Origin: Squalus acanthias
Lineage: Eukaryota
NCBI GenBank assembly: GCA_030390025.1
Contig: CM059432.1
Span: 38,566,001 to 38,630,000 of the forward strand
Reading direction: 5' to 3'
DNA length: 64,000 nucleotides
In this document: piece after piece, positions 10,591 to 61,029 of the stretch
Position numbering within the stretch: the first letter of the stretch is position 1
Layout of the letters: each line of letters begins with the position of its first letter
Notes under the pieces: model-generated
The model's database searches: none
The model's input: the letters and a program-made list of their open reading frames with translations, nothing else
Told to the model about the DNA's origin: nothing
Made by a program: the position numbers and the translations under genes

Positions 10591-12195
10591 GGCTTGGATT
10601 TTATTAATGGAGTAGGGTTGGGTGCGGGTCAGGTGGTTTCCGGCTTCTAGTCCCGTCCACGGACGTGAATTTGCCTTGATTGACATTGTTAAGCCCTCCC
10701 TGCGGGCTTGCCGGTCAATTAACAGGAAGCGGGTCAGATGACGTCATTTGATGATGCGTCATCTCCCGGTTTCCTTCAAGGGACCATGCACAATTTTATT
10801 TTGACAGTTGATTTCTCAGTGTTTGACAGCATTAAGGTGCTGCAAACACTGACAATCACTGCACAAAGGTGACCTCTTGCACCCAGACTCTCCAATGACT
10901 CCCTCCATAGGCTGGATAGATGGCAGCTGCAGGTGAGGTGACAGAAGCGATGTCACTGGTGAGAGAGGTTCGCCCAATGAGGTGGCACTGGACATGGATT
11001 TCAAAACTTGTAACCTAAAGATATGTGTAAATGTATTAAAAATGCAGTACCCAACAATGGCCCAGAAATTAAACATCGATGGTTCCCGCGGGGGTAAGGA
11101 TTCCCCGCGATATCGCACTCCGTGCCTACCTTTTTGTTTCGGGCCCACACGAACTTCAGTTTCAGGGCCTCTCCCTGTTGCAACCGTGCAGTGCTTGCGT
11201 GTCCCAGAGGCGCAATTAGTTCGTGCGAGCTCTGGGATCACGTGATTCAGTTAGAGCCAATGGCAGCACACCATCACTCATTCATAGTTTTCACAGCAAG
11301 GGCTGTCAAAGCTATGAATACTACAAGCCCCCAAAAGAACAGCTAAACCTCAATTAAATTTAAAAAAAAGCCATCACATTAATAAAATAACTATAGTTAA
11401 ATAAATTAACCACTTTAAACAAAAAATTAAATTTTTGAAAAAATTTAAAATCTTTTTAAAAGTTATAAAAATAAACTTACCTTTCTTTAAAGTCTCTAAA
11501 AAAGATAAACCTGTTGAAAAAAATTTAAAATAACACTTAATTAACTACTTACCTTGTTAAAAGGGGGTCTTACGCCTGCTTTCTTTATGTGTAAAATCTT
11601 CACCACTTACCTGCGCGTTCAAACCTGAAAAAAAAACTAAGTGCACTGCGTGCGCACAGCCTGTAGTGCGCACGCGGTTCACTTAGGAACCGCCCCCTTT
11701 GCAATACACGAAGTGCCGGTTTCCCGTGCATGCGCAGTGCATGCAGGAAACCGGCAATTCGGGACCTAATACGCGAGAGTACACAGTGCGTACTCTCGCG
11801 TATTAGGTCTAATTTTCGGGCCATTTTCTTTCATCTGAGACTCACCATGTGCAACATTGGATCCTGTCATCAATCCAGAAACATTACAGCAGACTCACAA
11901 CACGTCACACTTACCTGGCGTGGTGTCCGGACGTCGGGAAACCCGAGCCAGAAGCGGCAAAATTCAAAAATAGGCTGACAACTACTGGCAACTACCTGTT
12001 AATAGGCAACTAATTGCCTTTAATCCTCTTCCCGCCACTAGGTGTTGGGTCCATTCGCAAATCAGGGACCTGACACTTGGGAAAGCTGTTTGGAGGCAGG
12101 TTGATGGTGGGATCGCAACCCGCCATCAATCAAAATGATTTTAACCTATGACCCGCCTCCAAACCTGCCCTCTGAGCACTGGCAAAATCGCGGCC
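10591..12195 (+). mobile_element. Non-autonomous Harbinger derivative (family C), containing nested MITE B
   Basis: Imperfect TIRs GGCTTGGATTTT / AAAATCGCGGCC; interrupts CR1; 10730-10920 homologous to the reverse complement of 28600-28750 (Myb 5' remnant). Confidence 0.75.
11059..11822. mobile_element. MITE family B, copy 1 (Harbinger-type TIR/TSD)
   Basis: TIR GGCCCAGAAATT...AATTTTCGGGCC; flanks AAT/ATT; homologous to 17656-18421 and 51864-52626. Confidence 0.85.
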
Positions 12196-17090: not shown

Positions 17091-17114
17091 GCAGTGCTCG
17101 GAATACGTTCTGAG

Positions 17115-17128: not shown

Positions 17129-17129
17129 A

Positions 17130-17655: not shown

Positions 17656-18421
17656 GGCCCAGAAATTCGCTTCTCCAGCTTGCCGCGGGGGTAAGGATCG
17701 CGTGCGCTCTTACCTACCACACCTGCCGTTGTGTTCTGGGCCCACGGGAACTTCAGCTCCTGGTCCTGCTCCAAGAGCCGGCGCGCAGTGCTTGCGTGTC
17801 CCAGGGGCGTAGTTAGTGCGATGCGTCCCCTGGGATCATGTGGGCCATGGAGAGCCAATGGCAGCAGACCATCCTTCATTCATAGATTTGACAGGAGACC
17901 TGTCAAATCTGTGAATTGAAATCGGCCCCAAAAGAACAGCTAAACTTCAAATATTTTTTTTTAAAAACCCATCACATTTATAAAATAACTATAGTTAAAT
18001 AAATTAACCACTTTAAACAAAAGTTAAAATTTTTGAAAAAATTTAAAGTATTTTTTAAAAGTGATAAAAATAAACTTACCTTTCTTTAAAGTATCTAAAA
18101 AAGATAAACCTGTTGAAAAAAATTTAAAATTATACTTAATTAACCACTTACCTTGTTGAAAACGGGTCTTGCGCCTCCTTTTTAATAGCATAGTTTCTTC
18201 AATACTTACCCTCGCGTAGAAACCTGAAAAAAAATCTAAGTTTGCTGCGTGCGCGCAACCTCTAGCGCGCACGCAGTTCACCTGGGAACCGCCCCCTTCA
18301 CCATACCGGAAGTTCCGGTTTCCCGCGTATGCGCAGTGCATGCAGGAAACCGGCACTTCGGGACGCATTACGGGTGAGTACGGACTGTGTACTCACCCGG
18401 GAAGGGCCGAATTTTTGGCCC
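17656..18421. mobile_element. MITE family B, copy 2
   Basis: TIR GGCCCAGAAATTCG...CGAATTTTTGGCCC; exact AAT TSD; interrupts the CR1 endonuclease. Confidence 0.9.
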
Positions 18422-24961: not shown

Positions 24962-26402
24962 ATTTAAAAAAGGTGGTAGAGAGAAAACGGGGAATTATAG
25001 ACCAGTAAGCCGGACATCGGTAGTGGGGAAAATGCTAGAGTCCATTATAAAAGATGTAATAGCAGAGCACTTGGAAAACAGTGACAGGATCGGACAAAGT
25101 CAACATGGATTTACAAAAGGTAAATTATGCTTGACTAATCTACTGGAATTTTTTCAGGATGTAACTGATAGAATAGATAAGGGAGAACCAGTGGATGTGG
25201 TGTATTTGGACTTTCAGAAGGCTTTCGATAAGGTCCCGCATAAGAGATTAGCATTCAAAGTTAAAGCACATGGGATTGGGGGTAAGGTACTGACTTGGAT
25301 AGAGAACTGGTTGGCAGACAGGAAGCAAAGAGTTGGAATAAACGGGTCTTTTTCCGAGTGGCAGGCAGTGACTAGTGGGGTACCGCAGGGATCGGTGCTA
25401 GGACCCCAGCTATTCACAATATATATAAATGATCTAGACGAGGGAACTTGATGTAATATCTCCAAGTTTGCAGACGACACAAAGCTAGGTGCGCGTGTGT
25501 GCTGTGAGGAGGATGCAGAGAAACTCCAGTATGATTTGGACAGGTTGGGTGATTGGGCAGATGCATGGCAGATGCAGTATAATGTGGATAAATGCAAGGT
25601 TATCCACTTTGGTGGCAAAAACAGGAAGACAGATTATTATCTGAACGGCAATAGATTGGGAAAAGGGGAAGTGCAATGAGACTGGGTGTCCTTGTGCACC
25701 AGTCGCTGAAGGTAAGCATGCAGGTGCAGCAGGCGGTTAAGAGGGCAAATGGTATGTTGGCCTTCATAGCGAGAGGATTCGAGTACAGGAGCAAGGATGT
25801 CTTGCTGCAGTTGTACAGGGCCTTGGTGAGACCACACCTTGAGTATTGTGTGCAGTTTTGGTCGCCATATCTGAGGAAGGATGTTCTTGCCATGGAGGGA
25901 GTGCAGCGAAGATTCACCAGACTGATACCTGGGATGGCAGGAATGACGTATGATGAGAGATTGGGTCGATTAGGCTTATAGTCGCTAGAGTTTAGAAGAA
26001 TGAGAGGGGATCTCATTGAAACTTTTAAAATTCTAATAGGACTAGACAGACTAGATACAGGAAGGATGTTCCCGATGGTGGGGCAGTCCAGAACCAGGGG
26101 TCACAGACTCAGGATAGGGGGTAAGCCATTTAGGACTGAGATGAGGAGGGATTTCTTCACCCAGAGAGTGGTGAACCTGTGGAATTCTCTACCACAGAAG
26201 GCAGTTGAGGCCAACTCATTAAATATATTCAAGAAGGAGTTAGATATATTTCTTAAGGCTAAAGGGATCAAGGGATATGGGGAGAAGCAGGGACAGGGTA
26301 CTGAATTTGGATGATCAGCCATGATCTCATTAAATGGTGGAACAGGCTCGAGGGGCCGAATGGCCTACTCCTGCTCCTATCTTCTCTGTTTCTATGTTTC
26401 TA
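24962..26402 (+). mobile_element. 5'-truncated CR1 LINE with stops and frameshifts
   Basis: RT motifs across ORFs 25023-26314; TTTCTATG tail; possible ATGAT TSD. Confidence 0.9.
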
Positions 26403-27192
26403 TGATGTCTGCCACCGCCTGATGTGACAACCTCAGCCTATGGAAGCACTGCTCTTCTGAGAGGTCAAGGAAACTGAGCCTCTGTCTGTAAACCCTGTGA
26501 TGTGGGTAGTATCTCCTGTGACCTTGGCTCCTCTCCTGTGCACCTCTCTCCTGTACACGTGCTGATCCCACCACAGCACTTCGTTGTTGCCGTGGATGGT
26601 GATGGTCTTCCTCTTCTGATGTGCTGTCAAACACATCCAAGGCGCCTCCCATCCGGCTCGTGTCAATTTGAAACCCTCCAAGGTTGAAAAAAGCTGTATC
26701 CACACAAGCACTCTCTGCCAAACGTTTACCAGAGGGAACTGAGACAGTGGCTGCAATAAGTGAGCTTTTATTCAGATGGGACAATAACAAGTTTAAATAC
26801 CCACCTAAGCTACTGCTCAAACCTCCCTCCATTTCCCTGGTCAGTTTCCCGAGCCCCGGGAAACCCGTGCTGCTCAGGTTAAATTTGAAGCCCAGTTAAA
26901 AACAATTTAAAAATACCTCATTAACATCTCCAAAGGATGTTAATTGTGCCAATAAGTGCCCGCCCACATCCAATGATGAAATCCCTGACTTCGGCGAGTA
27001 GGTTTCTCACCGGCATCAAAACCCACCTTCGTGAACTTGGAAGTCAAAAATTTTAACCCTCCCCCCCCCCACCCGTTCCCAGTCCACCTGTTCTTGGGGG
27101 TTAAAATTCCCCCCATGAAGTCAGAAAAGGAACCTTGTAATATCGTTTAACATCCAACAGAACAGGCAGACAAGGCCTCGATTTAACATCTC

Positions 27193-28882
27193 GGCCGGAA
27201 TTTTGCTGGTGCTCAGCGGACGGGATTGGTGGTGGGTCGGCAGTGAAATTTGATTTGATTGACAGCGAGTCGGGAACCCGCTGTCAAATCACACAAACTT
27301 GCCTTTCCCAATGTTGGGTCTGCCAGCGCTGAGCAGACCCGACCGGCAGTGGCGAGGGACCGAATATAAACAATTATTGGCTTGTTGACAAATCCTTTAG
27401 AGTGAATTTAACCTTACCTTTTGACTTTAACAGCTCGCCCACAGCTCCCACGCTGCTCCTGGACCCGGTCTGTTAATCTGAGGCAGAAGTTAAGTGGCCA
27501 TTGAATCAGCTAATGAGTGACAGCTTGAAATGTAGTATAAATGCTCCCACTTCACACCTGTTCACTTTCGAAGCACAGAGGCTGTTGCTTTCTCCCTTTG
27601 GAACACAGATTGAGCTTTATGCAGGCTGCAAGTGTTTGGAGCAAACTCTCCAGCCAGTGTCACCTCATTGCAGCAACCTCTCTCACCATTGACAGATTGC
27701 TTCTGTCATCTCAACTTCAACTGCTCTCTACTCCATCAGCATGGGTACCATTTACACTCTCTCACCTTGGTCCTCAGAATCTGACCAAAATGAGCCCCAA
27801 CACCAGCAGCAACAATAACAACACCAACCTTCTCCGCAATTAACTGATGCTGCACAGGACAGAGGGCATCAGCACCCGAGCACATTGCTGCCCGGGAGGC
27901 CAGGGATGGCCTCACCATGGCCAGATTTACTTCACTTGATGCTGTACACCCTGGCTGTCACATGATGCGCCAAGTTGGCACCACCCTGCACCAACACCAT
28001 AAAGCATCCCTACAATGCCCAACCCATTCCTTTCACATTCATCACCATTGCGGGGCTACCATTATGTCGCACCATTCACTGCAACTCACTAAGCCACTTC
28101 CAAAGGTGCACATAAATCTGTCCAAGAATGCAAAGTGTTGAAAATAAAGGCTTCAATGTTTGACACCACATTAACAGAAACTTGACATGAACATTGCATA
28201 AAACACCCAAGTGCCTACCCTTGTGTGTTGTTAATTGTTATGATTGGACTAGGATGAGGGTGAATGTGAGGGGTGGCTAGTGAGATGGGGATGTGATAAT
28301 ATAGATAGGGAGGGATGGGTGGAGGTCCAAGGTAAGTTGGTGTGAGTAAGGATGTGTAGGAGGAGGGTGGGGATGTGATGAGAGGCACAGCAGGATGAGG
28401 TTGAGTGTGGCTTTGTACTAACGTTTCGTGATCTACTGAGATCATTGAAATGTTTGTGGCACAGCACCCAGGTCCTCCTGACCACATCTCTGCTTGTGAG
28501 CTCCTCTGCAATGTGCAACCAGGCTGTGTTGATCTTCTGGGGAGGTCTCTTCCGCCCATGGGAAGGGAAGAGGAAGGACCTCCCTGCGTGGTGTGGCTCC
28601 TTCCATAAGCATATGAAGGGAGTCATGGGAGAGCCTGGGTGCAGTCATTGTTAGTGTTTACAGCACCTTAATGATCCCTTTAAGAAACTGGCTGATGACG
28701 CATCATCAAATGACGTCACCAGACCCACTTCCTCTAATTGGCTGGGAAACGCGCTGAGCGGGCTTAACAAGCCCAATCAAGCGAAAGTCATTTCAGACAG
28801 CGGGATGGAGCCAGTGGCAGGGCCGCGACCCGCCACCGACGTCGCCCGCCCCGGACCCGCCGAAGTCAGCAAAATCGCGGCC
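27193..28882 (-). mobile_element. Non-autonomous Harbinger derivative (family C) retaining a Myb/SANT exon remnant (28420-28648), inserted in a minus-strand DeuSINE-like SINE
   Basis: TIR GGCCGGAATTTTGCTG / CAGCAAAATCGCGGCC; exact CTC TSD; TAWLHIAEELTSRDVVRRTWVLCHKHFNDL. Confidence 0.8.
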
Positions 28883-29576
28883 CTCGCTTGCAGAATGGCA
28901 CTTCTGATATTGCAGCATTCCCTCCGTACTACAACAGGATGCCAGTGATGCAGTTAAGTATTGGAATGTGTCTTCAACCCATAACCTTCTGGTTGAGAGG
29001 TGAGACTTAGGCAATGTGCTGATGAATATGAAGGTGAGAAAATTGGAGAAAATAGAGTGGTTGCCCCCCCACCACAAAAAAATTAAAGAGTTGTTTTATC
29101 CCTAAATTTAGAAAATAGAAAACAATAAACATGCCTGTAGGGCAAAACGGAATGTAAAGTGCATACAGAAATCCAAACCGTTAAACTCAAACAATCATTC
29201 TAAATTAATACATTAGATGTAAGTATAGAGGTCACTCTATCTACGTGAGTGTACTCATTTAGCCATCTGCTATAGTTGATTCAAAAAGCAAATAAAATAT
29301 TTTTGGGAAATAGTCCAATATAACAAACGTAATCTACTGATGAAAGGACATTAATCTCTCGCCAGCAAAATAAGCAGATAAGCACAAAGGTCACTTCAAA
29401 CTAAACAATACTTGGAAACAGTGTCCCACTCCATAGAAATCTGCCGCTTGTGCTTTACACCACAAGCCTTTTTTGAAACATGGAGGCTTAAAGCCATGCA
29501 GCACCACCGTGTAGTGCAAAAACATTAACACCCGGAATTTCTTTGGGGGTTCTGCCGATAACTATGGGGATATTAC

Positions 29577-32328: not shown

Positions 32329-33138
32329 GGGGAGCAATTTTCAACTACCAGCTGCCCGTTTCTTGCCTGAAAAATGAGCAACTGGCAGAGGTAAGTGCTT
32401 GTGGGGACCTTGTATATCCATTTGCCCACCTGATTCAAAGGCCTTTAAGTGGGCGCACAGCACTCCCGCCCAAAATAGGCAGGCGGCTGTCTAAATATGC
32501 ACCAGTGGTTGTAGGACCCAGCTTGCAATTTCCATGAAGAAATGGGCAGAGCATGCAAAGTGCATGAGTTCCCCTACTGGCTCCACTGCTATGCCAGAGA
32601 CCATTGCTGGCTCCCAACCGATCAGCCCCCTTCCCTCCCTCCCAGTTGGTCCCTTCCCTTACTCCTGATTGGCCCGCTCCCTCCTGATCACTTCCTCCCT
32701 CTCCCAAACACTTTCCTCCATTTCCCCATCACCCCCCCTCCCCCGGCCAATTAGCTTCACCCCTCTCCCGGATACTCCCCACCTTCCCGATCACTTTCCC
32801 CCTCCCTCAGCACGGAATTGAAATCCTCTTTACCCATGAGAAACCTGGGGATGCCCAGCAGGCATCTGCAGCTCACTGGCCTTATGTAAATGATGGTCCA
32901 AACCCAATATTAGGTGTACCTTTACTAGCCATTCTGGTGTAGAGAACATTCCTTTCACCCTATTCGTGACACAGTTGCCTGCAAGTTAAATCAGTGAGCT
33001 GCCTGGGGATGTGCAGCAGGCGTCCATAGCTCGCGGACCAATTGAAATGAGGCCCGAGGCCCAATATCGAATGGGCCTCGGGCCTATTCCCTGCACCCAG
33101 TTAGCACCGGCAGGCTGGCACTATCCAACTTCATCCCC
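32329..33138. mobile_element. Possible old MITE
   Basis: GGGGA...TCCCC termini with AAT on both sides; internal palindrome 33050-33085. Confidence 0.45.
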
Positions 33139-33563: not shown

Positions 33564-34539
33564 GGGCAGAATTTGCGATGGGTGTGACGGCATACATGAG
33601 AGAACGCTGTCATACCGCCTTTCAAATGGACAGCAAGTTCAGGATTTCCGTATCCGCTTGCGCATGCGCTAAATCCCAAACTTGCACTCTGTCAAGTTCC
33701 GACTTGACAGACGATCCACACCAACGGGGAAATCCTCATTGCTAGCGCACAGTTGGGCTAATTGCCCAGCAATTACGCACAAAAATTTTACGGCTGATGC
33801 AAACTGGTGAAGGGCCTGTTTGCATCAGCGTAAGGGGATACCTCAAAAGATCCAAAGCATCGTTCGGCATGTTTTAACATTATTTACCTCACATAAAAGT
33901 GAAATTCAAACATTACCACAGATGGAAGCACTTGAGCTTGTTTGAATAATTTGGCCGTGAGCTTCGTAGAATTGCGAAGAGCTTTTTTTGTTAGTTTGTT
34001 TTAGTGTCTGTGTGTTTGCGTTCAATAAAGTTGTCAGAATAAGTATCAGTCTTGCCAAAGGGGGATTAGTAAAACAGTTTATCAATTGTTTCAATTTTGT
34101 TATTTAAAGGACACTCGCAATGCATTGGCTTGCTACCACGACCAGAGGGGGAAAGCAGAAACTTGGCGCTTCCACTGAGTGAGAAATATATTTATTTCTG
34201 AAGTTGTGCTGCTATTACCTGTCGGGAGATGGGAAATTTTGTAAAATCCAGCTGTATTTTAAACAATTATTGTATAGATGTTTATGCACATTTAAATCCC
34301 GGAAGGCTCTAGTAATGAGAGTTTAAATGAGTGAGAGACCTCCTGTTTCCTGATTGGAGCACCGACCCACGTTTCCGCTCATGCTGCGCCCCTGGGATTC
34401 GTGGCCATTGCGCTGCCCTCGAGTACACAGCGTCAAACAGCAAGTTCACGAAGGAGGCTCCCCATCAGGTAAATGCACATTCTATTCGGATGCCGGCGGC
34501 GTTCTCCGTAGTTACACCGCCGACCGCAAAATCCAGGCC
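33564..34539. mobile_element. Probable Harbinger-type MITE
   Basis: GGGCAGAATTTGCG...CGCAAAATCCAGGCC imperfect TIRs; internal TGCGCATGCGC. Confidence 0.5.
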
Positions 34540-36900
34540 AAAGACTACACTCTTTCTTCTGTGTCATACAATTTTACTATTAAAATATAATTCTGGATAT
34601 TCATAATTTTCTGAAACATTTAGCTTGTCTGAAAGTTAACAAAATTGTGGCAATAATATCAGCAAAGATATATAGTGTGACTGTAAAAGGTTGAAAGTTT
34701 TATATTTCTAGCTATTGTACAGATCATCCACTTTTTGTGCTAATGGCTGAAAAGATCTGTATGCTGCAAATGTTGGTGTCAGGAAATGACATTCAAATTG
34801 TGTATAGTTTTTAAAGCAATTTATTCCAAGCTAGTCTACGAAAGGCACACCAGTATCAATTATGTAACTTCACCAGGTTTACTGTGATAACAGCTCCTGT
34901 GTTGCAAGTAAAGGTCAAATCAAGGCAAACAGCTCTGAAGGTTACTCAAAACAAACTTCAGCAAAGAACTGCTGCATTTGTTACTGTTTATAGGATGAAA
35001 ATAAATCTACAGAAACATGGCTGTACCGTGTAATGCAGACAACAGTGACTTGATGCTCTGCTCTGACAATGAACTGATTCAATGAACCATTGCAGTTAGT
35101 CACTGCTAAGTCATGCAGAAAATTCCATGAAATGGCTTCCAAAGTAAACATTAACAAGCTCTATAATAACAAGTCTGCTAATGTATGTCCTCCTTTGAAC
35201 ATCTGTAGTGATTATCTTATTCTAAATACCCAAGCCCAATTTCAAATTACAACCCAAGCCAATCTATCAATGAAATTTGTATTTGTTGAATTATAAAATC
35301 ATCGCTGATGTTTTAAAGTATGTGTGGCAGGGCTTTATATCGTGTGTAATGCCAGAAAAGGGGTCCTGCTGGGATGAAACACTGGCAGCTGCTTTATCCC
35401 AAACAATTACAAAAATCATGTTGATCAATGGAATTGATGTCTTCAGACTCACAAAATACATTTGTGTCCTAATTTCTCCTTCTACAGCAGTGCCATTCAC
35501 AAACCACTAAGTAGCTGGGTCAGGCCGACTGATTTGTACTGAAGACTTCTCCGTGGCTTTTACCTTTGTGTTGCGTTGAGTGCCTTTATTTCTATGGCCA
35601 AGGAAGTGGGGGTGGGGGAAGGTCTATGAGACCAGTCTGGACATTCCTAGCTATATGACATATTGAAGCCATGGATACATAGCAAAATACTTCTCAACTA
35701 ATGAATTTACTATGATTGTCTGTAGTTTGAACTGCAGCAGAAGCACTTTGAAGCTCTTCTCCACGATGATACTCTTACTTGGACAGAAGATGCATCTAGT
35801 TACAACACAATTACAACATTTATTTAGCACCTTTAACATAGAAGAATGTCCACCTACTAAAAGGGGAAGCTTTTTAATAGATCTGGTATTTTATACTTTT
35901 CGAGATCATTATCCTACTAACATAGGATTTACTGGCTTCCAGGTTCCCCAACTCTTTAAATTAAAACAGAAAAAAGCAAAGACAGATTAACATTTCGGGT
36001 GGAGGCCTTAGGCTGAATTTTCCTCAGCACTGGTGAACGTGTAGCATAGCGGGACTTCTAAATTTTCTAATGTCAGCTTCATCTGGATAATTACGGTATT
36101 CCTGACTCCTATTGAGATGTCACGGCAGGGTCGAAAGGCCTGCAGCAGCGAAAAGAGCATCAGGATTCATTTTTGGTTGCAGCATTTAGAACTTGCAAGA
36201 GATAAGTGTCTGAAAGTTCATCTACAGGGCACAAAGCCCCCAAATTTTCAGATGCTTCAATTGAAGTGCTGCTGATGAGGAGAGAGGAACTGTTTGGGAT
36301 GCAGGGGAGAAGGGACTCGCAATAAATGCCACTTGCACAAAACTTAATAACCACATAAAATCGGGCAAGGTAAGGAAGAGTCAGCCACACCATCCAAAAA
36401 TGCCATTTACAACCAACCTTCCTCTCAGTGTGTTGAAGAGCTTCAATTGCTTACTATTAATATCCAGGAGGATTCACAGTACTCTTTACACTCTCAACCT
36501 TCACCTGCAAGTGTTCCTTTACTCACAGCTTGACATGTATGTAGCCCGGTAAAAGCTTCAAATGGTATTCCTGGTTTTTGCACCTCATCATCCTCATTTT
36601 CATTTGCCTGCTGGCATCTAGGTTTAACTCCATCTCGTAATAACCAGAGGGCATTCTCACTTTTTGCATTCTCCTTAAGGTAGATGAATGCAAGGGAGAG
36701 ATTGGCAATAGGTGGTGACCCGAACCTTAAGGATCTCAAGGGTGCTCCCTCACTGATATGCCTGACTCTAAACAGCAAGTGATTTCACTTGGATTGACTG
36801 CCATTTGCACACAGAATTATAGGCCTCAATGAAGACCCTTGAATGGCAAGCATGCTTGTCAGTGCACTTACCGCTGGCCGTACAGTTGACAGAACAGTTA

Positions 36901-37212
36901 ACACGGTGGCATAGTGGCTAGCACTGTTGCCTCACAGCGCCAGGGACCCGGGTTCGAATCCGGCCCCGGGTGACTGTCTGTGTGGAGTTTGCACATTCTC
37001 CCCGTGTCTGCGTGGGTTTTCTCCGGGTGCTCCGGTTTCCTCCCACAGTCCAAAGATGTGCGAGTTAGGTTGATTTGGCTATGATAAATTGACCCTTAGT
37101 GTTAGGGGGATTAAATACGTGGGGTTACGGGGATAGGGTGGGATATGTGTCGGTGCAGACTCGATGGGCCGAAATGGCCTCTATCTGCATTGTGGGGATT
37201 CTGTGATTCTGT
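36901..37212 (+). mobile_element. tRNA-derived V-SINE (HE1-like)
   Basis: Inverted near-copy of 7228-7524, with ATTCTGTG tail repeats. Confidence 0.85.
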
Positions 37213-40868: not shown

Positions 40869-41755
40869 GGGGGAGAAATTCGGTCTTGTCCCGTTTGCGG
40901 CGCAATAATCGGCCGAGCGCAAAGTTTTGCGCCTGGCGCTAATTATCGCCTCTGACTGCAAATTTGGCCTCTATTGCCCCTGGAGGTGATTGGAGCGCTA
41001 AATCAGGTGCTACACACCTGTCTTAAGGCACTAACGCCGAGGAGCGAGGCGCTACCTCAGAGCGCTGGCGAAGCTCAGGTGATGTCAGTCAGCAATGGAA
41101 CACAGACACACTGGCACTGGCCAGTTCTTAAAGGGGAGGGATGATCTTGCTCTCCATCCACACCCTGCTCATTGCAGCCTTGAATCTCGGCTGGAGAGAC
41201 CTGTACATCAATTTTGCTGGAAAGAACAATGGAGAGGCCCAGGGAAAATGCTCAGAGTGCAGCCCCCACAGTCTCTTCTAAATCGATGCAAGGAAGGTCA
41301 AATCAAAATGAACCTGCAAAGTGCTGCTCAGTACCCAAAACCCCTTCACACAGCATTGAATCTCTCCAGAAGTCTCTCTCTCTCTCTCAGAATGCGTGGT
41401 GCAAAAATGTCACCGACAAAAAAAGGCAGGAAGCGGTTGCCTTTAAATAGCGCTCCCCAAATCCCTTCCCGACTGCAAAACGTTCCCCTCTGCCCATCGT
41501 TGCTAGTGGCATGAGGAAAGGCAGGGGGCACCACTCAATATCCGGTCCAGGGCACTACCGGGGCGTTGCACGCTTGACTGACGTCATGATCTGTGGGCGC
41601 AGGAGATCGTGGCGGTAGTGTTTAGTGCCACCGCAAAATGGTCAATTTCACGAGCGGCGCAAACATCGCCGCACCCGGGCACTAGTTGCTTTGTGCCCCA
41701 TTAGTGCCCTCTTAGGGCGCTAACGGGAGGCACTAATCAACCGAATTTTTCCCCC
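40869..41755 (+). mobile_element. MITE family A, copy 2
   Basis: TIR GGGGGAGAAATTCGGT / ACCGAATTTTTCCCCC; clean interruption of CR1 (AAAACTAG|AGCTCCC). Confidence 0.9.
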
Positions 41756-41920
41756 AGAGCTCCCTGGATGACTAAAGATATGGTTAGCGAGGGAACACAG
41801 ACACACTGGCGCCGGACACTTCTTAAAGCGGGGGGGGCCACTTGCTCCCCAGCCACACCCTGCTCATTGCAGCCTTGAATCTCAGCCTGGAGAGACCTGT
41901 AATCCATTTTGCTGCCAAGC

Positions 41921-43940
41921 ATGGAGAGGGTGAGAGAACGCGCTCATCGCTTCACCGAGCGGGCCTTGGATGCTCTGGTTGACGCAGTGGAGCGCAGACG
42001 ATGCATGCTGTTCCCAGAGAGTGGCAGGAGGCCTTTGCCACGCGAGTTCAGAAGAAAGTGGAGGGAGGTGGCTCAGAGCGTCTCCTCCAGGAGCATGGTG
42101 CCCAGGACCCATGTCCAGTGCCGCAAAAAGTTCAACGACCTCACTCGGGTCGTCAGGGTGAGTGGCTTTTTCTCAATACCTCTCCATCCCTCCATCTCAA
42201 CCTCACTCTATGGCCAGAGGGTCTTAAAACCCCAATGCACAACACTCATCCAACACCTATGGCCCTTTCATCAAACACACACACACATTCCACACTTTGC
42301 ATACAGTAAGGGCTATTCACCTATGGGAGGCACATCAGGCAAGACCATGGCTGCATATTGTAAGGGCTATTCACCTATGGGAGGCACATCAGGCAAGACC
42401 ATGGCTGTATATTGTAAGGGCTATTCACCTATGGGAGGCACATCAGGCAAGACCATGGCTGTATATTGTAAGGGCTATTCACCTATGGGAGGCACATCAG
42501 GCAAGACCATGGCTGTATATTGACTCAGATGCTGTCCTTTTTCTTGCAGGCTAAGCTGGCTCATAATCGGAGACAGCAGCAACGGACGGGTGGAGGGCGG
42601 CTTCAGCTGCAACCCCTCAGCGATCTGGAGGAGCGCGTCCACAGGATTGTGGCAAGCCGGGTGATCGGTCCCGTCGCCACTGGAGACGCCGACCCCGTTG
42701 TGGACAGCAATGGTAAGGTCATCACCTTTTTGTCCTCTGTCCTTCCACTTGTCCCTCACAATACCAGCCTTTGACACTTTCAATCCAACTTGCTAACTCG
42801 CTGCACTTATTCCTCCCTTACTGCCACCCTGTCCTCACGCTAAAGCCACTCTTGTACCTCCCTGCTTTCAGATGGTGATTCACCAGCTGAGGAGATGGTC
42901 CCTGAAGCTGCCACTGGGAGAGATGCTGCAGCTGAGGAGGAAGAGGAAGCCGGAGCATCAGTGCCACCCTCTCCCGAGGAAGCCCATGGCCACACTGGGA
43001 ACACGCCTTCCCCGGAGGGGAGCAGGGGGGAAGGGGCTGATGATGGTGAAGTTCCAGGACCCAGCGGGCTGCAGCAACGCCATGGGGGGGGGAGGGAAGA
43101 ACGGGGGAGCAGGGGGGAAGGGGCTGATGATGGTGAAGTTCCAGGACCCAGCGGGCTGCAGCAACGCCATGGGGGGGGGGGAGGGAAGAACGGGAGCCTT
43201 CTCCCCAGAGGGAGAGTATGCCAGACACTCCTAATGCAATGGACGCAGAGGAGGAGCGGCTGATTGCAGAAATGAACAGCCAGGCGGTGGTCATGCACAC
43301 TGAGCTCATGGGTGCAGTGGGAAGGGTGCCCGAATGCATTGAGGCACTGGCAAGGAGTGTGGAGCACTTCGCTGTAGCACAGGCTGATGCCACACTAAAG
43401 CTTACTGCTGCAATTCAGTCACTGGCTGCCAGGAACCCATCTGAGCCTGCTCTCATGCAGACTCAGATTGAGGCCACGCGAGCACTGACTGCTGCCATCC
43501 TCGATGGTTCGTGCACATGTCCCCGGGGCTGTCACCGCGCCGCAGCAGGCCAGCAATCTGTTCTCAGGCAAATTGCTCCGGATGCTGAAGTGCTGCCCCG
43601 TGGGAGTGCCAGTGTGTCGGGCGAGCAGGGAGTTGCTGTCCTCTCTCACGATGACAGCATTCCTGCTGCCAACACTGTCACTTCTCCACTGCACTTGCCA
43701 CCGCCTGTAGGACAGACTGCTGCCGCCCATGCAGAGTTGGTGCAGTCTGCAGCCGGGCCCTCCAGGCCCAGAACTGGTCGAGGCCGTCCTTCAGGGGCAT
43801 CTGCAGTGTCAGGGTCTGACAAGCAGCAGCCTTCCACCAGCCTTGCTGCAGCCACTGAGGTCCCATTACGGAGGAGCAGTAGGGTTAGAAGGGGGGAAGT
43901 GCGCAAGGGAAGGAGATCACCCTCGAAGGGCAAAAAGTAG
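41921..43940 (+). CDS. Harbinger Myb/SANT-like DNA-binding protein; predicted exons 41921-42157, 42550-42712, 42872-43940, with a frameshift in a G-run at ~43171-43181
   Basis: RFTERALDALVDAV...W.EVA.SVS...RTHVQCRKKFNDL then RTGGG; GT-AG introns in compatible phases (AGG|GTGAGT, TTGCAG|GCT, AATG|GTAAGG, TTTCAG|AT). Confidence 0.85.
42306..42521 (+). repeat. 54-bp minisatellite x4 in Myb intron 1
   Basis: Units start at 42306, 42360, 42414 and 42468; nearly identical. Confidence 0.95.
43017..43194 (+). repeat. 87-bp coding tandem duplication
   Basis: SRGEGADDGEVPGPSGLQQRHGGG unit present twice. Confidence 0.9.
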
Positions 43941-44234
43941 GAGGTGTGCCAAAATGCTGGTCATTTTTTTATTAAAGGCCGAGGTTCATGGCCCAACTTT
44001 TGTTTAGTGTTTTGGACATTATCTCCAGGTTGTGAGAACCAGTTATGTTATTGACTGTTTTTTTGTGTTTATTTCTATGAGTTTGTCATGAGGAATTGAC
44101 ACACACAGAGTTTGTACAATAAATAAGTTTCTGTATTCAAAATATACATGGCTGGTGGTTGGAATTATTGGTGCCTTGGCCGGCTTAGGGGTTGCGTGCT
44201 GGGTTGATTCGTGTTTGTAGCACTGGCAGGGGCC

Positions 44235-45395
44235 CTAGAAGCGGCTTGCTATTAGTCGTTGACGGACGGCCCTTGCAGTTTGACCATTGTGGGCCGCCCT
44301 CCTGCCTTGGTGCTGCTGATGATCATCGTCCTCGGCCTGTTCCTCCTCTTCCTCCTCCTCCTCTTGTGGTGCTGCAAGGCCTGGTGGCATTGGCTGCGTC
44401 CTGAGGATTGCCATGTTGTGCAACATGCAGCACACCACTACGAATTTGGAAACTTGCTCAGGCGAGTACTGCAGGGCTCCTCCGGAATGGTCCAGACAGC
44501 GGAATCGTTGTTTGAGCACGCCGATTGTGCGCTCAATAATGTTCCTCGTTGCTTGTTGGCTTTCCTGGTACCGCAGCTCAGCAGGGGTGTTTGGCGCACG
44601 GAGCGGTGTCATCAGCCAGGTGCTCAATGCATACCCCTTGTCCCCCAGAAGCCAACCAACTGGCTGATGCGGTGCCTCGAAAATTTCTGCCACAGTACTC
44701 TGGCGCAGGATGAAAGCATCGTGGCAGCTGCCCGGATAGTGGGCATTGACAGCGAGAATCACCTGTCTGTGGTCACAGACCAACTGCACATTCAAGGAAT
44801 GGAACCCCTTTCTGTTCCGGAACTCCTCTGCATTCTCTCGCGGAGCACGCAAAGCCACATGCGTGCAGTCAATGGCGCCCTGCACCATGGGGAAGCCCGC
44901 TACCCTCGCAAAGCCCATAGCACGGTCATGCTGCTTGTCTGGGGTCATAGGGAAGGAGATGAAGTCTCGTCTCCTTGTGAAGAGGGCATTGGTGACCTGC
45001 CGGATGCAGCGATGCACCGCAAACTGGGAGATATTGGCGAGGTCCCCAACAGCAGCTTGGAATGAGCCAGTGGCGTAGAAGTTCAAGGCCACTGTGACCT
45101 TCACTGCCACCGACAAAGACGTCCTGGACCTCAGCTGAGGCTGCAGATCTGGCTGCAGCAGGTGGCAGAGCTCAGTGACCACCTCCTTGCTGAATCGCAG
45201 CCTTCGCAAACACAGCTCCTCGGACATGTGGATGTAGGAGAGCTGTTCACGATATACCCTGGGAGGGTAAGCTCTCCTGTACATGCGCCTGATGGGCCTC
45301 CTCCGTCTGGCCATCATTGCCACTCTCTGTCTGCGTCTCACTCTGCTCCGATTGAGCTGGAGCAGGACGACGCCCCCAATCATTGCAGCCCCCAT
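44235..45395 (-). CDS. PIF/Harbinger DDE transposase (HARBI1-like), intact 386 aa
   Basis: VALNFYATG, GAIDCTH, RNRKGFHSLNVQ, GSCHDA, LLGDKGY, IERTIGVLKQRFRCL, CCMLHN. Confidence 0.95.
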   Translation of the reverse strand: MGAAMIGGVVLLQLNRSRVRRRQRVAMMARRRRPIRRMYRRAYPPRVYREQLSYIHMSEELCLRRLRFSKEVVTELCHLLQPDLQPQLRSRTSLSVAVKVTVALNFYATGSFQAAVGDLANISQFAVHRCIRQVTNALFTRRRDFISFPMTPDKQHDRAMGFARVAGFPMVQGAIDCTHVALRAPRENAEEFRNRKGFHSLNVQLVCDHRQVILAVNAHYPGSCHDAFILRQSTVAEIFEAPHQPVGWLLGDKGYALSTWLMTPLRAPNTPAELRYQESQQATRNIIERTIGVLKQRFRCLDHSGGALQYSPEQVSKFVVVCCMLHNMAILRTQPMPPGLAAPQEEEEEEEEQAEDDDHQQHQGRRAAHNGQTARAVRQRLIASRF

Positions 45396-45950
45396 CTTCT
45401 CTTTGCCAGAAAAGTAATGAGGTACAGCAACGAAAGTAGCAGCAAAGTTAGGATGAACTAGGCAAAACTACCTCACAAAGCGTTGAGTCAATGTAGAAGT
45501 CTCTCTCTCTCTCTCTCCGAATCTCTCTCTCTCTCTCAGAACGAGTGGTGCATAAATGTCGACCACAGAAAAAGACAGGAAGAGGCCCCCTTTAAATAGC
45601 GCCCCCCCCAGCCCCAGACCGATTGATAACGTTCCAGTCTTCCGGTCGTTGGAAGCGCCAGGCGGTAAGGCAGGGGGCGCCACTCAATTTCCGCTCCGGG
45701 GCGCCCCAAGGGCGTTGCACCACGGACTGACGTCACAATCTGCGCGCGCAGGTGGTCGCAGCGGTAAGTTTTAGCGCCGCCGCACAAGATTAAAATGAAA
45801 CAGAAAAAGGACGCTTATGATAAATGTCGGGTTCATAATGCAGTAGAGAACCAAGCTGAATATAAAAAGTACAGTGGAGAACTGAAAAAGGAAATAAGAG
45901 GAGCAAAGAGAATGTATGAGAATAGATTAGTGGGCAACATAAAACATAAA

Positions 45951-47825: not shown

Positions 47826-48117
47826 GTTAAAAAGGCATACAGGAGCCTTGGCTTTATAAGTAGAGGCATACAGCACAAAAGCAAAGAAATTAAGCCAAAC
47901 ATTGGCTATGCCCCAGCTGAAGTACTGTGGCCATCACACTTTATGAAGGATGTCAATGCCTTAGAGAGGGTGCAGAGAAGATTTAATAGAATGGTACCAG
48001 CGATGAATGACTTCAGTTACATGGAGAGACTAGAGAAACTGGGGTTGTTCTCCTTAAAGCAGAGAAATGTGAGAAGTCGCACAACACCAGGTTATAGTCC
48101 AACAGCTTTATTTGAAA

Positions 48118-48154
48118 TCACAAGCTTTCGGAGCGCTGCTCCTTCGTCAGGTGA
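48118..48154 (-). ncRNA. Minimal type I hammerhead ribozyme motif
   Basis: TCAC-CTGACGA-A-GGAGC AGC GCTCC-GAAAGCTT-GTGA. Confidence 0.8.
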
Positions 48155-49550
48155 AGTGAAGAGATGCATATAGGCACAGCATATATAGTCAGAGAACACT
48201 GCCAGATGATTACAGTTAATCTTTCTAACTGCCCTTTATCACACCTCGGCAGAGAGATAATCACGGCAATCAAAGGTGTGGATGGTGTCCAAACGGGTCA
48301 GTCAGGAAAACATTACATCAAAGACAATGAGGTGGGGTCACAAGGGGTCGAATGTGGCAGATGCTGGGGTCTGTATGGAAAACAAAAAACTGTTTTTGCT
48401 GGAAATCACAGCAGGTCCGGCTGCATCTGTGTAGAGAGAACAAGCCAACGACGACTCGAGTCTGGATGACTCCACGTCAGGTGGGGTTACATGTAGCGTG
48501 ACATGAACGCAAGATCCCAGTTGAGGCCGTCCTCATGGGTGCGAAACTTGGCTATCAGTTTCTGTTCGACGATTTTTCGTTGTCGTGTGTCTCGAAGGCC
48601 GCCTTGGGGAACGCTTACCCGAAGTCACATGAGTATGTAGCATGTACCTGGTGGGTGGTGTCCTCACGTGTGATGATGGTATCTGTGTCGATGATCTGGC
48701 ATGTCTTGCAGAGGTTGCCGTGGCAGGGTTGTGTGGTGTCGTGGTCGCTGTTCTCCTGAAAGCTGGGTAATTTGCCGCGAACTGTTTGAGGTTAGGCGGC
48801 AGTTTGAAGGCGAGTAGTGGAGGCATGGGGATGGCCTTAGCGAGGTGTTCGTCGTCATCGATGACATGTTGAAGGCTGCGAAGTACATGGTGTAGTTTCT
48901 CCGCTCCGGGGAAGTACTGGACGACGTAGGGTACTCTGTTGGTTGTGTCCCGTGTTTGTCTTCTGAGGAGGTCTATGCGATTTTTCGCTGTGGCCCGTCG
49001 GAACTGTCGATCGACGAGGCAAGCGTCATATCCCGTTCTTACGAGGGCGTCTTTCTGCGTCTGTAGGTGTCCATCGCGTTCCTCCTCGTCTGAGAAGATC
49101 CTGTGTATTCGCAGGGCTTGTCCATAGGGGATGGCTTCTTTAACGTGGTTAGGGTGGAAGCTGGAGAAGTGGAGCATCGTGAGGTTGTCCATGGGCTTGC
49201 GGTAGAGTGAAGTGCTGAGGTGTCCATCTTTGATGGAGATTCGTGTGTCCAAGAATGAAACCGATTCTGAGGAGTAGTCCATGGTGAGTTTGATGGTGGG
49301 ATGGAACTTGTTGATGTTATCGTGTAGTCTTTTCAGTGATTCTTCGCCGTGGGTCCATAGGAAGAAAATGTCATCGATGTATCTGGTATATAGCGTTGGT
49401 TGGTGGTCCTATGCAGCGAAGAAGTCTTGCTCGAACTTGTGCATGAAGATGTTGGCATATTGGGGTGCGAATTTGGTCCCCATGGCTGTTCCGTGTGTTT
49501 GGGTAAAAAACTGGCTGTCGAAGGTGAAGACATTGTGGTCAAGGATGAAG

Positions 49551-49890
49551 CGGTACATGGTACATACTCATGTGACCCGGCCAACGTTGTCTACCTCATA
49601 CGTTGCAGGAAAGGATGCCCCGGAGCATGGTACATCGGCGAGACCATGCAGGCACTGCGACAACGTATGAACGGACACCGCGCAACAATCGCCAGGCAGG
49701 AGTGTTCCCTCCCAGTCGGGGAACACTTCAGCAGTAAAGGACATTCAGCCTCCGATCTTCGGGTAAGCGTTCTCCAAGGCGGCCTTCGAGACACATGACA
49801 ACGAAAAATTGTCGAGCAGAAACTGATAGCCAAGTTCCGCACCCATGAGGACGGCCTCAACCGGGATCTTGGGTTCATGTCACACTACAT
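49551..49890 (+). pseudogene. Penelope GIY-YIG endonuclease domain
   Basis: VVY...YIGET..LRQRMNGHR...VGEHF; premature TGA at 49796. Confidence 0.85.
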
Positions 49891-50226
49891 GTAACCCCAC
49901 CTGACGTAGAGTCATCCAGACTCGAGTCGTCGTTGGCTTGTTCTCTCTACACAGATGTGGCCGGACCTGCTGTGATTTCCAGCAAAAAAAGTTTTTTGTT
50001 TTCCATACAGACCCCAGCATCTGCCACATTTGACCCCTTGTGACCCCACCTCATTGTCTTTGATGTAATGTTTTCCTGACTGACCTGTTTGGACACCATC
50101 CACACCTTTGATTGCCATGATTATCTCTCTGCCGAGGTGTGATAATGGGCAGTTAGAAAGATTAACTGTAATCATCTGGCAGTGTTCTCTGACTATATAT
50201 GCTGTGCCCATATGTATTTCTTCACT

Positions 50227-50263
50227 TCACCTGATGAAGGAGCAGCGCTCCGAAAGCTTGTGA
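50227..50263 (+). ncRNA. Minimal type I hammerhead ribozyme motif
   Basis: TCAC-CTGATGA-A-GGAGC AGC GCTCC-GAAAGCTT-GTGA. Confidence 0.8.
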
Positions 50264-51863
50264 TTTCAAATAAAGCTGTTGGACTATAACCTGGTGTTAT
50301 GCGACTTCTCACATTTGTCCACCCCAGTCCAACACCGGCATCTCCACATTAAAGCAGAGAGGTTTAGAGGAGATTTGATAGAGCTGTTCAAAATCTTGAA
50401 AGGCTTTGATAGAATAAATAAGGAGAAACTGTTTCCAGTGGCAGAAGGGTTGGTAACCAGAGGACACAGATTTAGGTAATTAGCAAAAGAACCAGAGGCA
50501 GCATGAGGGAAAAAAAATTTACGCAGCGAGTTATGATCTGGAATGCACTACCTGAAAGGGTGGTGGAAGCAGATTTAATATTAATTTTCAAAAGGGAATT
50601 GGATAAATAATTGAAGGGGAAAATTCGCAGGGCTAGAGGGAAAGAGCAGGGCAGTGGGACTAATTGGATAGCTCTTTCAAAGAGGCAGCACAGGCACGAT
50701 GGGCAGAATGGCCTCCTGTTCTGTATCATCCTATGATTCTATGATAATATGCTACTGAACCTATTAAATTTGATTTGGATGTGTGTGTCTATAATATATA
50801 TATTACACACACATATATTTAAATATATTTTTTTATTCAAAAAGTGAATTCAAGTGAAGAAAGAAAGAAAGCAGATAATAACCAGTTTATCTATTTTGGT
50901 TGTGTTGGTTGAGGGAGAAATGTTGGTTAACTGCCTTGCTCTTCTTCAAAAAGGGAATTTTATGTCCATCTGAACCCACAGACATAGCCTTGGTTTAATG
51001 TCTCATCCAAAAGTTGGCATGATAAAATTAAACTAATTTATTAAACACAGTTGAACTCTCACTATATTACCTTTCCCTGAAATTCCATGGGTTTCTCCCG
51101 GTCTTCTGGTGTTACTACAGCAGGAGATCAGCAGAATACCCAGGGAAATGGTGCAGCAGCCAATTTTCTCCGTGAACACCATTTCCCTGAAATCCTTGGC
51201 ATTCATAAGGAATTTCCTCAATGTTCCATTTAACCGATTGTCCAGTAACTACTTCTTGTGAAAGATGACTCAACCGGATTAGTAAAGCTCTTTGGGATAA
51301 TTTTATTTAAAATACGTCAAGCAAATAATCTTTCAAGTTATAAAAATGCAAGGTTCAAAATAGGATAGAGTTAAGTCGTGAAGAAATAAATGTTTGCATT
51401 CTTATAGCCTCGAACATAAAGCTTAGTTAAGCTTCTTCCCTGAACAACTCTTTCAAGGAAGTGAAAACTTCAGCAGCAAATTAAATACCCTTTGTGTCAA
51501 AACACGATTAGCAACAGGATAACTAATCCTCTCAAAAAAAGTCTCCAGCTACCAAGAGAGATCTACATAGTTAATGTCTTTGCTGCATTGTAGGCAGCTG
51601 CATTTGTATGGTACTTAGAGACTTTCCAGATTAGAGTATCTGAAGAGTGAACAATTATTAAGATTTGGTCACTTGTTACTCTTTATTTTTATAGATAGGT
51701 AATGATCAAAATAGATTGCTCATGTAAGGCCAATGTTGGACTGGGTGTTAAATGTTAAGGATTCCTTTCAAAACAACAAGATGGAAGAATTATATGGTTA
51801 ATATTGACTATGATTCTAACAGGAGATTATTGTATCAATTATTGGTGCGGCTGGAATAACAAT

Positions 51864-52626
51864 GGGCCAGAAATTCGGCTCTTGTCGGGTGAGTACGCGC
51901 TGTGTACTCACCCGTAAGGCCACCTGAAGTGTCGGTTTCCTGCATGCACTGCGCATGCGCAGGAAACCGGAACTTCCGTTCCCCTGAAGGGAGGGGTTCA
52001 GAAGTCGAACGCGTGCGCGGGAGAGGCTGCGCGCACGCAGCGAACTTCAGTTTTTTTTTCAGGTTTCTCCGGGAGGGTAAGTATGAAGAAGCTGCACTTT
52101 TAAAAAGGAGGCGCAAGGCCTGTTTTTAACAAGGTAAGTGGTTAATTAATTACAATTTAAACATTTTTTCAACAGTTTTATCTTTTTTAGATACTTTAAA
52201 GAAAGGTAAGTTTATTTTTAGCACCGTTAAAAAGTATAATTAATTTTTTCAAAAATTTAAATTTTTGTTTAAAGTAGTTAATTTATGTAACTTATAGTTA
52301 TTTTAAAAATGTGATTTTTTAAAAAATTTATTTTAAGTTTAAGTGTGGTTTTGGGGCCGATCTCTATTCATAGATTTGACAGGTCTTCCTGTCAAATCTA
52401 TGAATGAAAATGCCCTGCTAGGATTGGCTCTCCATGGCCCACGTGATCCCAGGGGACGCTTCGAACTAACTGCGCCCCTGGGATACGCAAGCACTGCGCG
52501 CCGACAGCTGGAGGAGGCCCAGGACCCGAAGTCCTCGTGGGCCCAAAGCACAACTGCAGGCGGGATAGGCAAGTACGCGCGCGATGCTTGCACCCGCAGG
52601 AACCCGGTAAGCCGAATTTCTGGCCC
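51864..52626. mobile_element. MITE family B, copy 3 (inverted relative to copies 1 and 2)
   Basis: Perfect 17-bp TIR GGGCCAGAAATTCGGCT; exact AAT TSD. Confidence 0.92.
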
Positions 52627-53052
52627 AATATTAACAGTCGGAGACTGATGGCTGTAGAATGTGAAATGAACTGGCAAGAAAGGAGTTATACTAAAGACTG
52701 CAAGGCGTTCTCTGTCCTCCAGCAGGAAGCTCTATGCAGCTGACTTATTCCGATGTGCAGAGCTCTTTGCACCGGCAGCTATTTTCCAATGATAGCAGAG
52801 CCGAATGGCAGCATCTGCTTTCTCATAACATGAAGGAAACTCAATATTAAGTATAAAGAGTGACCAGAGATCCATTTTTAAAACTTGGCTTCACTCTGGA
52901 TTGGAGTTATACTTCACCCTTTTTTGAAGCCATGTGAACTGACTGCTTCACACTACTTGGCTTTGTGTGCTTAGGAATCAGATAAGAACCTGTCTCTGAG
53001 TTATGTTGCTGTAAGAATGGCTTTCACAAAAGTGCTTTCATTGTCCTCCATG

Positions 53053-57945: not shown

Positions 57946-58035
57946 TCGAAAGGTACATGAGCAATGCCGTGAAGCAAAAGCTAGAGCCAATAGGGTGTCA
58001 GGGTGTATCCATTGGACAATTCATTATAAGACAGA

Positions 58036-58911
58036 GGGGGAAAATTCGGTTGCTTTGCGCCTCCCGTTAGCGCCCTAAGAGGGCGCTAATGGGGCGCAAA
58101 GCAACTAGCGCCCAGGCGCAACAATGTTCGCGCCGCTCGCGAAATTGACCAGACATTCTGTGGCGGCGCTATACACTACCGCCACGATCTCCTGCGCCTG
58201 CAGATCGTGACGTCAGTCGAGCGTGCAATGCCCCGGTAGCGCCCCGGAGCGGATATTGAGTGGCGCCCCCTGCCTTTCCGCCTGCCACTAGCAACGACAG
58301 GTTGAGGGGAACGTTTTGCAGTCGGGAAGGGACTGGGGGAGCGCTATTTAAAGGCAACCGCTTCCTGCCTTTTTTTGTCGGCGACGTTTTTGCACCACGC
58401 ATTCTGAGAGAGAGAGACTTCTGGAGAGATTCAACGCTGTGTGAAGGAGTTTTGGGTACTGAGCAGCACTTTGCAGGTTCATTTTGATTTGACCTTCCTT
58501 GCATCGATTTAGAAGAGACTTTGGGGGCTGCACTCTGAGCTCTTTCCCTGGGTCTCTCCATTGTTCTTTCCAGCAGAATTGATGTACAGGTCTCTCCAGG
58601 CCGAGATTCAAGGCTGCAATGAGCAGGGTGTGGGTGGAGAGCAAGATCGACCCTCCCCTTTAAGAACTGTGTGTCTGTGTTCCATTGCTGACTGACATCA
58701 CATGAGCTTCGCCAGCGCTCTGAGGTAGCGCCTCACTCCTCAGCGTTAGTGCCTTAAGAGAGGAGTGTAGAGCCTGATTTAGTGCTCCAATCACCTCCAG
58801 GGGCGATAGAAGCCAAGTTTGCAGTCGGAAGCGATAATTAGCGCCAGGCGCTAAACTTTACGCCCGGCTGATAATTGCGCCCCAAACGGGGCGATACCGA
58901 ATTTCTCCCCC
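58036..58911 (-). mobile_element. MITE family A, copy 3
   Basis: Reverse complement of copies 1 and 2; TIR GGGGGAAAATTCGGT / ACCGAATTTCTCCCCC. Confidence 0.9.
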
Positions 58912-60698: not shown

Positions 60699-60908
60699 TG
60701 CGGAGATGCTGGTGTTGGACTGGGGTGGACAAATGTGAGAAGTCGCACAACACCAGGTTATAGTCCAACAGCTTTATTTGAAATCACAAGCTTTCGGAGC
60801 GCTGCTCCTTCGTCAGGTGAAGTGCCCGACGAAGGAGCAGTGCTCCGAAAGCTTGTGATTTCAAATAAAGCTGTTGGACTATAACCTGGTGTTGTGCGAC
60901 TTCTCACA
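60699..60908. mobile_element. 210-bp palindromic Penelope mini-insertion with a hammerhead motif (60784-60820, minus)
   Basis: Near-identical to the termini of 48066-50348; 14-bp TSD TATATCAATTATGA. Confidence 0.9.
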
Positions 60909-61029
60909 TATATCAATTATGACAATCCAGACAATGGAAAATATTGTACTGTTATACCAGTTTATAAGGGATAAATGGCTGTCCTAGATTTATGCAGAAA
61001 TAAAATGATACACAAAAGCAAAAACAACT

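Follow-up and report, generated by a model that had tools for sequence, protein, structure and literature searches.

The 64-kb window, by which we mean the whole stretch of DNA analysed here, is repeat-rich, vertebrate-like DNA that contains three copies of a non-autonomous Harbinger-type element of 763 to 766 bp (family B; Table 1), and all copy counts and alignment statistics given for this family refer to these three copies of the window. Their colinear layout and pairwise identities (84, 75, and 79%) indicate a single origin, and since the copies are related by descent, the triplet of splice donors that they share does not amount to three independent occurrences. All three carry short, 12-bp TIRs starting with GG, flanked by a target-site duplication that is exact in two of the three copies and has one mismatch in the third. 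The length of this duplication was set at 3 bp because the empty-site spacing of the CR1-like sequence around the 17656 copy fits only after removal of 3 bp, which recovers the 16-residue spacing between two anchors of a paralogous CR1. An LTR retrotransposon (positions 13022 to 17371), whose 242-bp repeats are 96.7% alike and whose 931-aa frame includes reverse transcriptase and RNase H domains, adjoins a CR1-like fragment. The 11059 copy, judging by eye, is apparently nested inside another Harbinger-like element (positions 10586 to 12195), which has strong inward-facing donors of its own at 11914 (minus strand) and 10933 (plus strand).

Table 1. Family B copies, the two-gene Harbinger element, and features of family B in coordinates of the window (invariance counted in alignment columns of the three copies)
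Feature	Position	Strand	Description
Family B copy 1, 763 bp	51864..52626	+	12-bp TIRs; flanks AAT/AAT at 51861-63 and 52627-29
Family B copy 2, 766 bp	17656..18421	-	84% identical; sits in CR1-like LINE coding region; flanks ATT/ATT
Family B copy 3, 764 bp	11059..11822	-	75% identical; flanks AAT/ATT, one mismatch
Two-gene Harbinger, Myb/SANT on +, DDE transposase on -	41903..45467		PF13873 E 1.5e-08; PF13359 E 6e-38
Subterminal palindrome	51886..51914		Two compensatory changes; either strand donor-like in 2/3 copies
GC-rich block with the highest conservation; NRF1-like and ETS-like sites within palindrome	51933..51978	+	40/46 invariant
Acceptor-like a1 (T9 + CAG)	52051..52062	+	11/12 invariant; no yTnAy upstream in 3/3 copies
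Donor 1	52077..52082	+	6/6 invariant; predicted U1 duplex -11.9/-11.9/-13.2 kcal/mol
Donor 2, immediately 3' of AAG	52134..52139	+	52128-52139 12/12 invariant; predicted U1 duplex -11.7/-11.7/-12.2 kcal/mol
Branch-point-like TTAAT, 31 nt 5' of a3	52141..52149	+	9/9 invariant; at -31 in 3/3 copies
Acceptor a3	52164..52175	+	12/12 invariant; 99/100/100 nt from donor 1
Candidate 30-nt exon, includes weaker acceptor a4 at 52190	52176..52205	+	28/30 invariant; equal length in 3/3 copies
Donor 3, then minus-strand AATAAA	52206..52220	+	15/15 invariant; antisense AATAAA there in 3/3 copies
AT-rich block without splice motifs, internal control	52242..52300	+	53/59 invariant
18-bp perfect inverted repeat that holds a TGACAG/CTGTCA pair	52366..52405		Palindrome; candidate site of protein binding
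CCAAT-box-like and E-box-like motifs, right GC-rich arm	52423..52446	-	CCAAT in 3/3 copies, E-box in 2/3

Family B showed no tblastn match to five Harbinger proteins from the window; for its longest frame, 122 aa in the 17656 copy, no protein homologue was found (0 of 3 candidates of near length scored), and Rfam gave no match at gathering score across the whole window. Pattern scans for further copies gave no match in metagenome or viral contigs, collections in which vertebrate repeats would hardly be expected. Nearby lies a near-complete two-gene Harbinger element (positions 41756 to 45787), with an intron-containing Myb/SANT gene on the plus strand, a 410-aa DDE frame on the minus strand, a 54-bp tandem repeat within Myb intron 1 (42298 to 42522), and a copy of another family, family A, at its left end. 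The TIRs, the 3-bp duplication, the lack of a coding remnant, and the nearby two-gene Harbinger together identify family B as a non-autonomous PHIS/Harbinger element. The duplication, AWT (AAT, ATT), differs from the TWA given for the PIF/Harbinger group proper (Han et al. 2015) and is compatible with the ANT given for the Pangu group in the relevant passage of PMC4482050, the transposase criterion of Pangu being inapplicable to a non-coding element. Short GG-starting TIRs, a 3-bp duplication, and a non-coding interior are likewise described in passages on mPing, Harbinger3N_DR, and short Harbinger-Snek variants (PMC2836001, PMC8437027, PMC4482050). The nearby two-gene element (Myb plus DDE) of the same superfamily is a trait shared with non-autonomous PHIS/Harbinger and Tourist-like MITE systems as those passages present them, but a classic MITE is shorter than the ~765 bp of family B. 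Short non-autonomous Harbingers have also been reported from sea kraits, in a paper whose main text does not contain "splic" (PMC8437027), and in a passage of PMC9179366 no Harbinger was found in elephant shark and other cartilaginous fish were recommended for checking. The two-gene Harbinger of the window has no significant match to either family B profile; it is the kind of element that could mobilise family B. Family A (~890 bp; positions 1423 to 2313, 40869 to 41755, and 58027 to 58911), the TIRs of which resemble those of family B, is a deletion derivative of the two-gene Harbinger type that retains the Myb 5' region with its start codon as well as the transposase-side upstream region, and it is without the donor cluster described below.

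The observed/expected CpG ratio is 1.04 to 1.11 in family B versus 0.51 for the whole window, and CpG-type changes make up 20 of 211 private differences in family B versus 36 of 106 in family A, which has undergone more CpG decay. Because the CpGs of family B were kept, its divergence looks lineage-level rather than the result of ordinary decay. Double-sided changes are present in the palindromes of the arms (7 among 144 predicted pairs and 9 among 86). We infer that the differences between the copies accumulated in replicating or unmethylated lineages, in which case conserved blocks can reflect constraint.

Within copy 1, the initial annotation had noted three GTAAGT motifs, starting at 52077, 52134, and 52206, and had described both motifs and spacings as retained in the two minus-strand copies. 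The motifs are indeed all present there (at 18209, 18151, and 18079 in the 17656 copy and at 11610, 11552, and 11480 in the 11059 copy), the 14-nt and 15-nt spacings are identical in all three copies, and the 14-nt segment itself differs between the copies in just the three forms that had been written out, with 8 of 14 columns invariant. Donors 1 and 2 lie 57 nt apart in copy 1 and 58 nt apart in copies 2 and 3, and the T-run ahead of donor 2 differs at one position in the 17656 copy. To these we add a fourth acceptor-like motif, a T-run plus CAACAG ending at 52175 (a3), which had gone without mention. At least three GTAAGT motifs on one strand occurred in 20 of 20,000 dinucleotide shuffles of positions 51864 to 52631 and in 1 of 20,000 shuffles of positions 52047 to 52219. 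Predicted duplex energies with U1, for which we used what we take to be its 5' end sequence, range from -10.6 to -13.2 kcal/mol across the donors (perfect site, -14.0) and are -11.2 and -8.5 kcal/mol for two donors of the window's Harbinger Myb gene, the introns of which were placed by eye. The three donors are identical from -1 to +6 and differ at +7, and donor 1 retains strong predicted U1 pairing by two different routes, which constitutes one event only.

Across the three copies, the donors are invariant in 18 of 18 columns and the splice-critical columns as a whole in 30 of 30, versus 171 of 224 for the other core columns (Fisher P = 5e-4); when only G/C columns are counted, the splice sites have 14 of 14 invariant versus 29 of 51 in the rest of the core. 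Random block placement gave a P value of 0.003 with the six blocks taken together and of 0.017 with just the donors, values that apply to sites chosen after the alignment had been viewed and to three related copies with few independent events. Within positions 52047 to 52220, conservation follows the splice signals: between donor 1 and a3, the donor, branch-like, and acceptor blocks are fully invariant, while the interior is invariant in 26 of 45 and 7 of 14 columns. The comparison of GTAAGT and AG with neighbouring sites, put forward in the initial annotation as a check on its idea that the motifs are under selection, came out divided. The motif columns are invariant, but the whole cluster (136 of 173 columns) is no better conserved than the adjacent AT-rich block (70 of 86), the internal control without splice motifs is close behind the motifs (Table 1), and a rigidly slid mask, which scored 30 of 30 only at its true place, reached 29 when shifted by +217 or by -1, among 612 offsets compared. 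Motif-specific selection on the splice sites is thus weakly, at most moderately, supported, because AT-rich sequence free of such motifs is nearly as conserved.

The internal donor-acceptor distances are 57 to 58, 99 to 100, 114, 42, and 57 nt, and donor 1 and a3 (52077 to 52175) form the sole internal pair that combines a workable length with a branch-point-like TTAAT at -31 and a tract plus CAG in all three copies. A U2-type intron has a donor, a branch-like motif 18 to 40 nt 5' of YAG, a pyrimidine tract, and a minimum length, all of which this pair provides, making it a plausible candidate mini-intron of 99 to 100 nt that would leave a 30-nt exon up to donor 3. The branch-like block also resembles a trihelix GT box. 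The more specific proposals of the initial annotation, namely, microexon use of the 14-nt and 15-nt segments and recursive splicing at donor 2, draw on real likenesses: vertebrate microexons of 3 to 27 nt lie between AG and GT, as do the spacings of family B, fixed in all three copies, and recursive sites juxtapose AG and GT, as donor 2 does with the AG directly 5' of it. However, family B differs from both in frame, intron length, branch point, and -3 base. The 14-nt segment, variable between copies, would not preserve the frame and lacks a branch-point-like motif in each of the three, and the internal introns next to the 15-nt segment and the AG|GT site would measure just 42 and 57 nt, with a 57-nt interval preceding the 15-nt segment; vertebrate introns are rarely shorter than ~65 to 70 nt. 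At donor 2, the -3 base is A rather than a pyrimidine (AAG, not YAG), the tract is interrupted by AACA, and the corresponding intron would measure 57 nt (58 nt in the other copies); recursive splice sites are located in very long introns. Because of the frame, the missing branch-like motif, the intron lengths, and the AAG after a broken tract, both proposals fit poorly, and we regard regulated microexons or recursive splicing as highly improbable here.

Conserved splice signals in a non-coding element do need an explanation, since DNA transposons have no RNA intermediate. The reading that we favour, with a probability of roughly 0.4, is that the cluster belongs to a promoter plus first-exon/intron module, in which the donors would act as promoter-proximal U1 sites on transcripts from the left arm. 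The left half of family B would then have the anatomy of a gene 5' end, with an inward-facing, CpG-rich, promoter-like arm that gives way to T-rich sequence holding three co-oriented strong donors and one putatively spliceable mini-intron of ~100 nt, after which come a 30-nt exon and the first part of an intron that is cut short. Such a module may have been derived from the first exon and intron of the parental Harbinger gene or from a captured host promoter. Transcripts begun in the left arm would bind U1 at the donors, and the promoter-plus-U1 arrangement may have been retained during lineage diversification, probably because copies that carry it stay transcribed and accessible. On this view, the 14-nt and 15-nt spacings would be by-products and not microexons. 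Consistent with this reading, all donors lie on one strand, just 3' of the most conserved GC-rich block, and the GC content falls at the donors from 62% in the left arm (observed/expected CpG, 1.1) to 26% in the core, a drop that appears as at a first exon-intron boundary. The NRF1-like match in that block is present in all three copies and the ETS-like match in two, both being short motifs in palindromes; these labels, like those of the CCAAT and E boxes, presumably correspond to the accepted consensus sequences. Two other Harbinger-like elements each have a strong inward-facing donor 260 to 280 bp from an end (19076 and 11914). Against the promoter module, a1 and donor 2 are without a role in a simple model, and the conservation of the NRF1/ETS block may stem from its being palindromic. 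No parent was found in the window, where the full Harbinger and its family A derivatives keep their promoter ends without a donor cluster.

In host genes, a comparable arrangement is known. NRF1, ETS, SP1, and NFY are given as leading initiation motifs in human cells (10.1101/2024.05.28.596138, in the passage concerned), and U1 that sits on 5' splice sites keeps transcription from ending early (PMC10760643). A GC-rich NRF1/ETS-like block followed by sense donors, together with the restriction of AATAAA to the antisense strand in the 51864 copy, would give family B a likeness to the U1-polyadenylation axis at CpG-island promoters (Kaida 2010 and Almada 2013, as cited in PMC10760643); unlike in that axis, which is known from host genes, the antisense AATAAA of family B lies downstream and not upstream. 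A further step would be that the lineage was selected to mimic a host-gene 5' end, with a CpG-island-type promoter, clustered U1 sites, and a mini-intron keeping copies transcribed, unmethylated, and transposase accessible, and that several Harbinger derivatives share this trick; we consider this extension doubtful. Were a promoter and U1 sites selected on the element itself, MITEs would thereby have a way around silencing, and each copy would carry a portable promoter and first exon that could splice into host genes; should the signals instead be a relic or boxes for a protein, family B would be an ordinary MITE whose sequence usefully records where it came from.

That the signals are such a relic, without function, is quite possible. 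They could have been inherited once or have arisen by short duplication, and would persist only because the AT-rich core as a whole is slow to change, constrained at the DNA level, or homogenised through conversion between lineages, and the similarity between positions 52051 to 52069 and 52164 to 52182 is in keeping with duplication. The similar conservation of cluster and adjacent block, the 29 of 30 columns reached by the slid mask, and the post hoc choice of sites all agree with a relic as well, but the complete invariance of the splice-site G/C columns, the block permutation P values (0.003 to 0.017), and the way in which conservation tracks the signals within 52047 to 52220 do not. We find it unlikely that the motifs are instead DNA-level boxes (GGTAA/GGTTAA) bound by the element's Myb/SANT-trihelix protein, with an incidental likeness to donors. 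Harbinger Myb-like proteins with a trihelix motif are described as binding terminal or subterminal DNA in passages of PMC9392472, PMC2836001, and 10.64898/2026.05.26.728016, and plant trihelix factors as binding GGTTAA, GGTAAT, and GGTAAA in 10.1101/121319. The core has five to seven GGT(A/T)(A/T), all of them on the same strand, and inverted pairs of GGTRAG are found close to the ends as well. However, these subterminal pairs vary between copies and the central donors do not, and the latter are distant from the TIRs, are co-oriented, and reach positions +5 and +6 of the U1 register, while the pyrimidine tracts and AG would be left unexplained. A better candidate for protein binding is the inverted TGACAG/CTGTCA pair, which is common to three Harbinger-like families (B, C, and D) and may be a candidate binding site of transposition proteins; such pairs recur at 52376 to 52395, 17888 to 17906, 33689 to 33710, and 27259 to 27287.

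A trap for host transcripts is very unlikely in our view. Intronic copies in sense orientation would, through a1 and donor 2 or 3, yield poison exons of 71 or 143 nt at a cost to the host. The exon sizes are ordinary, stops are present in all three frames, and a1 has a nine-T tract, but a1 has no upstream branch-point-like motif, the conservation would go unexplained, and there is no host exon by which to orient the copies: none of the 149 scanned of 231 non-repeat candidate ORFs scored above the Pfam cut-off, and two matched weakly below it. Two further ideas were rejected. Splicing out of the whole element, in the style of Ds1 or Introners, was dismissed because the end-proximal sites are not common to the copies, the donor missing from one of the three and the acceptor being present in only one. 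Introners have their splice sites at the ends and are removed by splicing. Maize Ds1 is reported to be, like family B, a DNA transposon with splice sites, but its sites are terminal and serve to remove the element, whereas those of family B are central. An RNA fold that hides or presents the donors was rejected as well; in the consensus fold, double-sided changes were restricted to the GC-rich palindromes, with none in the core. Intron-based protection from HUSH (PMC8770142) would offer a possible reason for a mobile element to resemble an intron-containing gene. In the passage concerned, however, spliced stuffers with a donor, a branch point, and an acceptor around them gave no protection, and a donor-deleted intron did; because splice signals alone failed to protect there, HUSH evasion would not be a good fit for the family B cassette.

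Internal splice-signal cassettes are absent from the passages on known PHIS and Tourist-like elements in PMC2836001, PMC8437027, and PMC4482050, and no comparable cassette in a vertebrate Harbinger MITE was found in the titles and abstract openings of the largely open-access literature covered. Within the window, Harbinger-like DNA holds 11 of the 11 AGGTAAGT and 15 of the 19 GGTAAGT motifs, of which 7 and 9, respectively, belong to family B. Outside family B, 6 of 11 strong donors, as defined by predicted energy, lie in Harbinger-like DNA, which makes up ~25% of the remaining DNA with boundaries drawn by eye, and one of these six is an ordinary Myb intron donor. Since most matches are those of family B itself and the outside count is 6 of 11, a general enrichment of donors in Harbinger-like DNA is at most suggested.

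Several other elements of the window deserve mention. Two Harbinger-like elements, at positions 18815 to 19525 and 32329 to 33138, have one strong donor each (19076 and 32391), and the first of them is broken by a CR1 tail. Family C, a Harbinger-like MITE (33564 to 34539), contains weaker donor-like motifs; its left arm includes an NRF1-like site, and its right arm resembles that of family B, with a profile match that is not significant (E 0.85). On the minus strand, positions 26392 to 28885 hold the remnants of two Harbingers, one recognised by eye from a Myb-like first exon and the other from a transposase-like N-terminus, neither with a Pfam match. A 563-bp inverted repeat pair, 96% alike, surrounds a frame, presumably Penelope-like, at 48062 to 50319, and a related 177-bp palindrome lies at 60733 to 60909. 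A 297-bp tRNA-like SINE, which we take to resemble the elasmobranch HE1, is present in two copies that are 97% identical (7230 to 7526 and 36900 to 37195).
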